A DNA stretch of 64,000 nt from Eledone cirrhosa (GCA_964016885.1 OZ024748.1:31806001-31870000); one strand, 5' to 3'. Shown: positions 13,262-20,144, counted from the first letter of the stretch. The notes: generated by a model not told the origin, from the sequence alone. Made by a program: numbers and translations.

Positions 13262-14960
13262 TCAAATCAGTTCCCCGGAGTATTTCTCTTAGAATCTCTC
13301 GCCTATCGTCTAACTCTGATATTTTTAGTGAACATGCTGAATACTACAATAATGCATTAAGGAATGCTGACCACCGGGATACAATAGAATACATCGATTG
13401 GAATTTCCACAACACACATAGCTCTATACGTAATCAAGCTATACGTAACCGGGGGACTAAAACACAAGCACACACACACGGTACTACCAGACATACTAAT
13501 AATAGAAGATCACCACCAAATAAATCACGTTGTAGAAAGTATATCTGGTACAATCCTATTTTTAATGCCTCGATTAGTACAAAACTATCTCTTTCATTCT
13601 TTAAATTAATCAATAAACACTTCCCTAGTTCCCATAATTACAGCAAAATTCTGAACTCTAAAACTATTAGACTATCATACTCCACGGCACCAAACCTTGA
13701 AGCATACATAAAAAAACTTAACTTAAGGCAATTAAACAACTCTACAAAACAAAACATTTTAGTAACAGATGGGCAGAACGCAATATCTGCCTCCCAACCA
13801 CTAAATGGGAGACGGGTATTGCACAACCCACCTGTACCGCTATCACAACCTATCCATGGTATACCCGCTACCCACAACAATGAATGTAACTGCCATCTAC
13901 CTGAAAGATGTCCATTGCAGAATGAATGCCTAAAGTCCAACATTGTTTACCAATGCACGGTTGAATCGAACGACCAGAAATGGTATTATATCGGATCTAC
14001 CACCACATCGTTTAAATCTCGCTGGTACCGTCATCGATTCTCAATCAAACATCCGAATCACCGTTTTGTGACCACGCTCGCCAACAAGACCCGCCAACAA
14101 CACAACCAACATTTCACCTTAAAATGGGATATACTTTCCAGCGCAAATGCATATCGGAGTGGATTGAAGTACTGCAGGTTATGTAACCTTGAGCTATTTT
14201 ACATACTAAAATCCAAAAACAAACTACTTAACGATAGAATCGAACGATCATTATACTGCAACCACAAACTAAAAGCTAAATTCTCTCACTATAAAATAAC
14301 TTAACATTCGAACCCGTAACTACAACACCACTTTCTAGCTAACAACCTTCTCTTCCCCCCACACTACAAGATAATACACTGCTTATCACTATACATGGTA
14401 ACTCAGTACAATTCCTAGATTACTACTACAAAACCAAAAGTTCACTCACCACACATACTTTATCTGTCCCCTCTCTACCTATATATCTCTCTCTATATCC
14501 ATTACACTCTCTCTCTCTCTCACCTTTGACCTACCTCCCTCTCAACATCTATGAACCTGCCCTCTGGGGCAATAAATAATTCCGACCTCAACTATCTACG
14601 CATCTCTCCAAAAGTAACCAATAAAACCCCTACCATAACATTTTGATTAAGATATCTACAAGCCACTCTCTCCTACTTCTCCAACCCCTGCATATCTTTC
14701 CTTCTCTCTCCCTCTTCCCTACTTTTCTCTCTTCCTGTTCCACTCTATCTTCCCCAACAACCCCACTTAAGGGTTTTTACATTGTACATTTACCATTCTG
14801 CTCTGAGGAAACAGTGGTCACAGCATTGGATATTCGAGTTCTGCAAGTACTTGTGAATTTGCACGTAGCGGAACTAGGCTGCAGTACCACCGTGGAAACA
14901 CTTGTAAGCACACGGAATAAGTTACCTTTTTCTGATGTCTACCTGTTATTATTCATTATA
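13262..14960 (+). mobile_element. 5'-truncated PLE (family A2, related to B): decayed thumb, GIY-YIG ORF 13819..14304, 3' UTR with HHR
   Basis: [46 protein letters not shown]; flanked by TA. Confidence 0.85.
14799..14910 (+). ncRNA. Type I hammerhead ribozyme with ~85-nt stem II
   Basis: tgct-CTGAGGA(14803)-[gtggt..accac]-GAAA(14895)-cacttg-TA-agca. Confidence 0.7.
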
Positions 14961-15022
14961 TATATATATATATATATATATATATATATATATATATATA
15001 TATATATATATATATATATATG

Positions 15023-15537
15023 TAGATAAATCTACCAAGAGTTTACGGTAGTGTCCAATCCGTATGAAGAACTCAATGTATTCCGGATATCATGGAAAGA
15101 AGAGATGTAATGAAAAATCACTTTCGGTGAAAGATAAACGGTATACAGAGTCAAGATAAAATATTAAACAAATAATGAATAAACAATTCCTTATATTAAA
15201 CAAAAAAAGTTCATTATTTAACGATCGTTTCTAGGATATATATGTGTTAGAATTGGCATGCATATTCAACAGATCTATGTACAAAATTATACAAAATTAT
15301 ACAAACTATCAAGATTAACGTCTTCAGAAATAATTATTTCTGAAGACGGCGTATATATGTGTTGGTATGTATATTTAATCTTGATAGTTTGTATAATTTT
15401 GTATAATTTTGTACATAGATCTGTTGAATATGCATGCCAATTCTAACACATATATATCCTAGAAACGATCGTTAAATAATGAACTTTTTTTGTTTAATAT
15501 AAGGAATTGTTTATTCATTATTTGTTTAATATTTTAT
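15023..15537. mobile_element. Fold-back (inverted) PLE pseudo-LTR pair, non-coding
   Basis: ~15156-15318 is the reverse complement of ~15375-15537; inner palindrome cgtcttcagaaataattatttctgaagacg. Confidence 0.8.
15333..15480 (+). ncRNA. Type I HHR with ~115-nt rod-like stem II
   Basis: attattt-CTGAAGA(15340)-long hairpin-GAAA(15462)-cgatcg-TT-aaataat; 7-bp stem I, palindromic stem III. Confidence 0.7.
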
Positions 15538-19071: not shown

Positions 19072-20027
19072 AAGAGGGACATCCCCCAACTATATGAACC
19101 TTAATCTAGTTAGAAAAATATAAAAACAATCTCTTCTCAACATATATTAATAACCTTAAATTACCATACTAATAATGAAAAGATATGCTGATGAGAATAG
19201 GTACAAATATGCGATAATGAATGTGTCTAAAAACGTCCATAAGTATGTATATATATGTGAAAATGTATATAAATAAGTAAATATATATATATGTTTGATG
19301 TGTATAGTTAGATGTAAGTGTATTCATGTATTAAAGTGCTTATATATATATATATATATATGTATATGTGTGTATATGTATGTTTGTGTATGTATGTATA
19401 TGTATATATATATATATATATATATATATATATATGTATATGTATATATGTATGTATATATGTGTATGTATATATGTGTATATGGATGTGTATGTATGTG
19501 TATGTGTGTACACATGGACTAGAGTATGTATGTATATATGTGTGTGTCTATACGTGTGTATATAAAGATAAGTTGAGTATGAAAATGTATACACATGAGC
19601 GCGTATGTATGTACATGAATACATGTGTGTATATATATGTGTATGCATGTGTATATATATGTAAGTATGAATATGTGAATTGTGTGTATATGTATTTTGT
19701 AGAGGTGTGCAAATATATTTGTGTGTGAATGCGTGGGTGAAAGGATACGTACACTTGAAAGAAAAATTTAAGTCTGAATGTTAATTAAGTGCAAACACAA
19801 AACCAACCACGCATATCTTCACTATCTCTAATCCTTCTATAGATTTAGAAAAGTAACCAATAATATATTCTATAAAAAATGTCAAAACAACAGATGGGAA
19901 TCTAATTACTCACTGCCACCAAGAATTCTCACTGCTATCGAAAAACCACTCCTTCAACTATTCTTCTAACAACTTCACCCCTCCCTCCTAATATTCTCTA
20001 TAAAAACTAAATAGGTCCTCAGTAATA

Positions 20028-20144
20028 TTATTCTGATGAAATGACAGTAAATAATAACATTGAAATATTGAATGTCTGCATAACTAAAAGTTTGTAGATA
20101 GCTGTTTTAGGTTATGTAACTGTTATAGAAACACGTGTCAATAA
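20028..20144 (+). ncRNA. Type I HHR (3' pLTR copy of 16429-16545)
   Basis: Same sequence at offset 3599. Confidence 0.75.

Follow-up and report, generated by a model that had tools for sequence, protein, structure and literature searches.

A stretch of 64,000 nucleotides from the genome of Eledone cirrhosa (OZ024748.1:31806001-31870000, assembly GCA_964016885.1; hereafter the window) carries hammerhead ribozyme motifs of three families of Hydra-clade Penelope-like elements (PLEs), here called H1, H2 and H3, in which stem II has grown into a long rod. The type I PLE hammerhead itself is known; what is genuinely new is a variant with a stem II of 40-116 nt and a conserved internal loop, in which A-N-U on one strand faces Y-A-G on the other. 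The structure of stem II is very probably under selection, and on balance we think it likely that the rod, with its one or two loops, docks a protein and tunes a predicted slow, dimer-dependent cleavage. Earlier accounts present PLE hammerheads as minimal, and what they do is unsettled: cleavage is poor, one needs the protein of its element, and transposition in vitro did not require cutting. A young, high-copy lineage with a large arm and a small invariant loop offers a handle on both the binding partner and the gating of cleavage.

Hammerhead motifs in the window

The H1 motif lies on the plus strand at 14799..14910, its core (14803-14809 and 14895-14898) enclosing an 85-nt stem II rod (14810..14894, plus strand), with a predicted cut after the GUA at 14906. 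That of H2 (15333..15480, plus strand) has a stem II of 115 nt and a predicted cut after the GUU at 15473. The H3 motif (16429..16545, plus strand; 88-nt stem II, predicted cut after the GUC at 16540) sits in a 5' pseudo-long terminal repeat (pLTR; 16390..16585, plus strand) identical to the 3' pLTR at 19989..20184 on the same strand, where a second hammerhead copy (20028-20144, GUC at 20139) is followed by a short tail that ends in (TA)n. These three motifs, with spacings of 85, 115 and 88 nt between the core halves, had been described in an earlier note on this DNA, and the details given there were all verified: the spacings, the strands of stem I, the 8-mers of stem III and the cleavage triplets. 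A further copy of H2, additional to that note, lies inverted at 15019..15334 (minus strand) and consists of a hammerhead (15334-15213), with 26 nt deleted from the 5' arm of stem II and 89 nt left, and a long 3' tail. The minus and plus copies together make up a tail-to-tail palindromic mini-element within (TA)n; such mini-elements are frequent among H2 copies (window 15019-15540; L061-L090).

The sequence-only patterns gave four matches plus one in the window, the inverted copy among the five; by 100 shuffles, 0.00 and 0.01 would be expected. All of the motifs have the CUGANGA ... GAAA ... UH core of the type I hammerhead and three covariation-backed helices round it, with the open end at stem I, and we have almost no doubt that they belong to the hammerhead family. 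The earlier suggestion was that length-limited descriptors would miss them, and standard models do: none of the four long motifs is among the best 150 of 207 Rfam matches (E<=5), whereas the short hammerheads at 42640 and 61758-62426 do figure among the matches listed.

Carrier elements and family history

The H3 element of the window contains an intact open reading frame (ORF) of 773 amino acids (16750..19071, plus strand) with RWK, DKT, YRDD, CxCX5C and GIY-YIG motifs. The H1 ORF (13252..14304, plus strand) is truncated at its 5' end, retains the thumb, CxCX5C linker and GIY-YIG, and is 97% identical in DNA to that of the full element L102. All three families show RWK (RWR in H2), DKT rather than DKG, the CxCX5C linker, a C-terminal GIY-YIG and CxH near the terminus, the protein marks by which the Hydra clade is defined (PMC8557442). 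Naiad or Chlamys membership is ruled out by the C-terminal endonuclease and DKT. Hydra-type insertion into (TA)n, with tandem and inverted copies, is also observed. The PLE context holds throughout, with the motif in both pLTRs round an intact ORF in the H3 element of the window and in L099 (H2), L101 and L102 (H1) and L104 and L105 (H3). The H1 and H3 proteins are 60% identical and that of H2 is 42-43% identical to either, so that the kinship of ORFs noticed earlier extends to the third family.

The three families are young and abundant. Exact copies of a short probe numbered 584 for H1 (25-mer), 4,963 for H2 (26-mer) and 1,973 for H3 (25-mer), with none in the control; the 150 best-scoring genome places for a 200-aa query from the H3 ORF were 99-100% identical and stop-free, with many open frames of 785 codons. 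In one DNA run the depth of pLTRs far exceeds that of ORFs; two runs from other organisms contained short, nearly identical pieces at low depth and were left out of the analysis. Between ORF and hammerhead lies a microsatellite-rich 3' untranslated region, of about 4.2 kb in the two full H2 elements (L099, L100) and about 0.96 kb in H3 (window 19200-19750). The 3' untranslated regions of H1 and H3 share an identical 14-mer with a CCAAT-like box (14611 and 19850), about 185-190 nt 5' of the core, which is a possible pLTR promoter element. A palindromic repeat resembling a miniature inverted-repeat transposable element adjoins both ends of the H3 element (16184-16390, 20176-20503) and recurs at 60565-60718.

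A rapid tree built from relatives in this genome and in metagenomes, over 148 columns of the endonuclease region (106 rows, SH-aLRT support only), placed 31 of the 33 rows from this genome together (support 94). Inside that group the families with two loops (79-93 nt) are a clade (99) and sister to the H2 group (104-116 nt; 96), with a joint support of 91; families of 12, 26, 36, 47 and 98 nt fall outside these. Because of this grouping the expansion of stem II looks specific to the Hydra radiation of this host, and the loop motif looks to have come from a common ancestor.

How many, and how long

The genome (3 Gb) was searched with the pattern CTGANGA-N-GAAACRNNYGTH, the control being the reversed pattern. 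Spacings of 9-39 nt gave 11,301 matches against 2,187 in the control, those of 40-70 nt 10,727 against 327, of 71-100 nt 17,546 against 205, of 101-130 nt 11,934 against 280 and of 131-160 nt 965 against 202; from 40 to 130 nt the total is 40,207 against 812. These counts are partial, because the pattern passes over families with other stem III sequences. Since some 40,000 copies escape the Rfam models, censuses with short limits on stem II undercount hammerheads, a caution that may apply to PLE families reported with half a core only (PMC8557442).

Loci were sampled from the first matches on contig 1; 279 sequences reduced to 196 distinct motifs and 85 clusters (75% score cut-off), 67 of them of 40-130 nt once the deleted H2 copy had been dropped and 17 longer. 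All 17 of the latter proved to be composites, duplications or chance matches, which places the supported upper end at about 116-126 nt; long families that can be linked to ORFs span 47-116 nt. The long stems are thus the long end of a continuum of 12-116 nt in this genome. Of the "expanded hammerhead class" first proposed, the enlarged stem II stands and the distinct class does not. Four sampled motifs (L140, L165, L256, L257) have a 93-97-nt stem II with a predicted branching into two hairpins, lack the ANU/YAG loop and were linked to no ORF.

Metagenome relatives give a different picture. A hammerhead was found in 56 of 77 Hydra-clade loci, and 70 of the 72 hits had spacings of 10-29 nt, the other two lying inside ORFs and having poor stems. 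A looser search of 17 of the 21 loci without a hit, many of them short-tailed, gave no long-stem candidate.

Probable selection on the long stem

The case for selection rests first on a permutation test in which one representative per cluster, with no filter for pairing, was paired with its own partner strand or with the partners of other families. For the 36 clusters of 71-130 nt, the proximal part of stem II formed 6.36 of 9 pairs against 4.00, stem I 3.33 of 5 against 2.34, and the centre pair of stem III 0.86 against 0.48, values that none of 20,000 permutations reached in any of the three helices; the 31 clusters of 40-70 nt behaved similarly. The automatic anchor was in the wrong register in 5 of 17 families, which were retained in the test.

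Alignments tell the same story within narrower groups. MAFFT lost register on 20 very divergent long motifs, and motif anchors and tighter sets were used instead: A3 (27 motifs of 78-83 nt, nearly gap-free) and A5 (24 motifs of 57-63 nt). In a further set, A6, rows L254 and L205 were taken from a second, upstream core and their 5' ends are misaligned. In A3, 84.6% of cells are paired, against 30-39% in slid controls, with double-sided change in 14 of 26 pairs; its covariation score was reached in none of 500 shuffles, its pair count in 23 and its count of pair types in 246. RNAalifold, unaided, recovered both inner helices. In A5, 86.0% of cells are paired and 19 of 26 pairs show double-sided change. 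Relatedness inflates such covariation comparisons, and the structures were named by the analyst. Architecture has nonetheless been kept while sequence diverged, as had been proposed: across diverged families there is covariation in stem I, in the proximal part of stem II and in the inner helices.

A conserved internal loop

The view that the inserts share no obvious sequence did not survive, as H1, H2 and H3 have in common a small sequence-structure motif. One strand reads 5'-A-N-U-K-3' and the other 5'-Y-A-G-3', best read as an A·G pair, a bulged N, a U-A pair and a K·Y pair. H1 and H3 have two copies (A14825/AG 14876-77 and A14837/AG 14867-68 in H1; A16460/AG 16510-11 and A16472/AG 16501-02, plus strand, in H3), as do about 15 other clusters, with a helix of 7-9 bp between them and a repeat every 10-12 nt. 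H2 and its relatives have a single copy near the tip (A15386/AG 15417-18 in H2); nothing in the insert is better preserved than the block around this copy, where N alone varies (G in 7, A in 4, U in 4). The 57-63-nt group also has one copy, with a C-G closing pair; its members are older copies, for which no associated ORF was identified. In A3 the loop's A, U, A and G are conserved in 26-27 of 27 motifs, while the bulged N and the helix pairs vary.

A rule written for the loop fires in 13 of 31, 20 of 27 and 7 of 9 clusters, in all 40 of the 67 of 40-130 nt, against 3.2, 5.8, 2.1 and 11.1 in shuffles, and in the chance class in 6 of 17 against 6.4. Genome-wide, 4,928 cores contain the 3' strand of the two-copy form and 9,060 contain the H2 block, with none in controls. 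A covariance model built without H1 or H3 ranks H1 first in the window, with its loops aligned, and the two H3 copies third and fourth; when it was applied to 96 further loci, every metagenome hit was a short motif (45-57 nt). Around short-stem hammerheads, up to 120 nt away, the loop shows no clear enrichment (metagenome, 15 of 45 against a mean of 8.9 and a maximum of 15; own genome, 5 of 38 against 7.2), and several long families (93-97 nt) lack it. By inspection, A3 has no GA/GA register of the K-turn type, and ANU/YAG does no more than resemble the S-turn consensus (AGUA/GAA).

Folding and expected cleavage

The inserts of H2 and H3 fold as rods far more stable than shuffled sequences (z -7.7 and -4.35; 0 of 200 as good in either case). 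The fold-back form described earlier stands for these two, but the branched form ascribed to one insert appears, for H1, only on folding the entire motif, where it disrupts stem II; alone, the 85-nt H1 insert folds as a rod whose stability does not exceed that of shuffled sequences (z -0.94; 36 of 200 as good).

In the window motifs a mismatch (A·G, C·A and A·A) takes the place of the R10.1-Y11.1 pair that closes stem II in the type I hammerhead. A slower rate is to be expected from it, but the assignment to PLE hammerheads is unaffected, because short Hydra motifs often have a mismatch there too (U·U in 19 of 45). The stem III sequences of H2 and H3 are perfect palindromes, with a self-duplex of about -10 kcal/mol; that of H1 is imperfect family-wide, the same 6-mer occurring in 33 of 36 sampled copies. 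From the mismatches at 10.1·11.1 together with the imperfect H1 palindrome, weak cutting is predicted. Known PLE hammerheads likewise cut slowly, as dimers, via a palindromic stem III (PMC4209133; Lunse et al. as cited in PMC6765202). Cleavage of the present motifs under some condition is fairly probable, the best reading being a slow PLE hammerhead that would depend on a dimer or a protein.

Termini and copying

Copies terminate at either of two sharply defined positions, 42-70 or 155-207 nt beyond the cut site, and (TA)n follows. Each family has two such 3' termini, 113-145 nt apart (window 16585 and 16700; L001-L090), and a two-ended tail of this sort has been tied to two start sites of reverse transcriptase (RT) (PMC11167929). 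The 12 nt preceding the cut are intact in 2,764 of 2,891 H3 tails (about 96%), so the template was uncut or had been re-ligated. The same tails rule out a piling up of 5' ends at the cut site. In H2, 16 of 30 sampled copies start 5-9 nt 5' of the core (a count that is not of independent events, as inverted pairs enter twice), so that hammerhead, long stem and tail segment suffice for copying. In full copies the H2 start point falls directly after CA, 9 nt downstream of AATAAA, and could represent either a site of poly(A) cleavage or a start of initiator type. The long stem as the cause of inverted junctions is unsupported, since short-stem families have them too.

What the long stem may do

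The motif stands in both pLTRs flanking intact RT-endonuclease ORFs. Two motifs of a tandem transcript would, by analogy with the PLE literature and given the palindromic stem III, pair through that stem and be cut after UH; reverse transcription begins 42-207 nt downstream and traverses the cut site. The ANU/YAG loops, about 11 nt apart on one face of the helix, may be a protein-binding site; the simplest candidate is the RT-endonuclease encoded by the element itself, which would then keep the RNA in place for priming and control its cleavage. What points to a protein site is the combination of invariant unpaired bases repeated at a helical turn with a protein-assisted relative, a PLE hammerhead that cleaves solely with its element's protein, a predicted dimer (PMC11167929). 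A role of the insert as a protein-binding module, as the earlier note had it, is plausible; for the loop itself, we hold protein binding to be nearly, though not quite, an even prospect.

A more specific proposal is a protein-switched hammerhead, with stem II as the platform for the element's own telomerase-like RT and ribonucleoprotein assembly controlling cleavage or circularisation and selecting RNA for priming; one or two loops a helical turn apart would match a protein dimer. We put this forward tentatively, and gating by the element's own protein should be read as a suggestion of the same doubtful standing.

Several observations weigh against the overall reading. Only 8 of 36 long clusters have a pair at 10.1·11.1, and slow cleavage is expected from A·G, C·A and A·A, the best mispair being U·U (PMC3088659). 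The H1 stem III self-duplex amounts to merely -1.1 kcal/mol, though the H1 family is young. In all three monomers the hammerhead fold lies 3-5 kcal/mol above the minimum-energy fold, and with flanks included the pair probability of H1 stem II is at most 0.16. The outer helix of the second loop (that of A16472) is weakened in the active 88-nt H3 subfamily, and short-stem Hydra families without the loop also thrive here, so the loop is not needed by all. The loop was defined post hoc on related families, so that the shuffle counts overstate its significance. In PAc, a Poseidon element of Anolis, protein binding was mapped to the initial 172 nt of the ORF, and mutation of the hammerhead left insertion in vitro unimpaired (PMC11167929).

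The strongest competitor is tolerated bloat, in which the hammerhead functions like those of other PLEs, and stem II grew by slippage and fold-back during reverse transcription and needs only to pair for the core to fold, the loops being inherited or structural. The continuous range of lengths, from 12 to 116 nt, fits it, as do an 11-nt tandem duplication in the apical loop of H2 that is absent from its relatives, the abundance of short-stem families (11,301 against 2,187) and the 93-97-nt families without the motif. Pairing alone, though, would favour losing a mismatch plus bulge rather than fixing it; the loop bases are invariant while adjacent helix pairs swap, and the motif has been kept across proteins only 42-60% identical and at differing distances from the core. 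We therefore consider bloat a possible but unlikely account.

The loops might instead make an RNA-RNA tertiary or host-factor contact, as an S-turn or loop-E-like module that touches stem I, a partner ribozyme or a host protein concerned with export, stability or translation. The succession of A·G, bulge and U-A resembles bulged-G and S-turn motifs, yet where loop E has a bulged G the base here varies. Natural hammerheads depend on contacts between stems I and II, and hammerhead folds have been linked to translation initiation (PMC13725137); a fixed contact with stem I sits badly with loops that lie 15-40 nt from the core, at distances that differ among H2, H1/H3 and the 60-nt group. Such a contact strikes us as improbable.

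It is more improbable still that the core no longer cuts and the element is a structured cis-signal, or a block to exonuclease at the 5' end of a pLTR transcript, the hammerhead letters being kept for some other reason. The intact cut sites of the H3 tails, the H2 copies that start upstream of the core, the degraded H1 palindrome and the independence of PAc transposition in vitro from cleavage (PMC11167929) would all accord with this, but circular templates would also leave the site intact, and stem I and the palindromic stem III covary in long-stem families (0.86 against 0.48 for the stem III centre pair), as dimer cleavage requires. A Dicer or Drosha substrate giving small RNAs, also raised in the earlier note, is unsupported for H1 and H3 and very unlikely overall, though less clearly so for H2, whose insert is a very stable rod: a microRNA or small interfering RNA would have a conserved arm of about 22 nt in a near-perfect hairpin, and in H1, H3 and their relatives the helices are short and variable and the loops are the conserved part, with no Rfam microRNA match at the motifs among the matches listed.

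Relation to known hammerheads

The discontinuous mammalian hammerhead of Martick 2008 reportedly has its insertion in another arm and is not of PLE origin. The closest known systems are the Hydra-clade PLE hammerheads of Craig et al. 2021 (PMC8557442), which share with those described here the protein motifs, (TA)n targets, position in the 3' pLTR, a stem I of 4-7 bp, a short, near-palindromic stem III, a frequently non-canonical 10.1·11.1 and a mismatched fourth pair of stem II. By our count from the published table (suppl. File S2), the Hydra rows have 12-26 nt between the cores, in contrast to the 47-116 nt of the ORF-linked families here with their conserved internal loop. The largest in that table are two PLE-X motifs from spike moss, of about 50 nt and marked as deviating; the descriptor used allowed a spacer of 7-17 nt, with cases of 35-50 nt mentioned.

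Minimal metazoan PLE hammerheads (Cervera and de la Pena 2014, PMC4209133) have in common with ours the type I topology, palindromic loop III, expected slow dimer cleavage and the occurrence of inverted pairs, one copy on each strand. A "large" helix II in that set means 6-8 bp, with a conserved G10.1-C11.1, whereas stem II here is an interrupted rod of 30-45 bp whose first pair is mismatched. PAc (Frangieh et al. 2024, PMC11167929) resembles the present elements in that its hammerhead lies upstream of two RT starts and an uncut template is copied; it belongs to another clade, its short stem II overlaps the start of the ORF, and the Penelope/Poseidon tail is of 30-40 bp, compared with ends 113-145 nt apart here. 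Viral type I motifs with a "long helix II" of 6-8 bp (PMC13725137) and the type III ObV-HHR3 of Obelisks (10.1101/2024.01.20.576352) are not from PLEs and, like the mammalian motif, share only a core that tolerates larger arms. The full-text literature searched, including 10.64898/2026.07.22.740005 and PMC12542633, gave no PLE hammerhead with such a stem II or loop, though subscription papers (e.g. Lunse et al., Terminon) could contain cases.

Other elements in the window

Further hammerheads, with a stem II of 12-31 nt, lie at 29807-29872, 38844-38909, 37802-37856, 40849-40899, 31579-31629, 61774-62410 and 42640-42684. Hammerhead-like matches at 49218-49272 and 56360-56414 on the plus strand, and at 45456-45510 and 51870-51924 on the minus strand, are near Hydra-type ORFs at 45588 and 52335-54705; in the two that were inspected, the core reads CCGAGGA (U4C) and stem II is 20 nt long. 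The PLE-like ORF at 22302-25952 (1,216 codons) comes from a different clade, marked by DKS and a CX4CxxC linker; it has a long Asn-rich insertion, and a partial copy of it is present in inverted orientation. The 750 nt that follow this ORF yielded no hammerhead core, and the hammerhead at 42640 does not adjoin it. On the minus strand, 7111-11247 holds an intact LINE-type ORF of 1,378 codons with an APE endonuclease, an RT and C-terminal C2H2 fingers.

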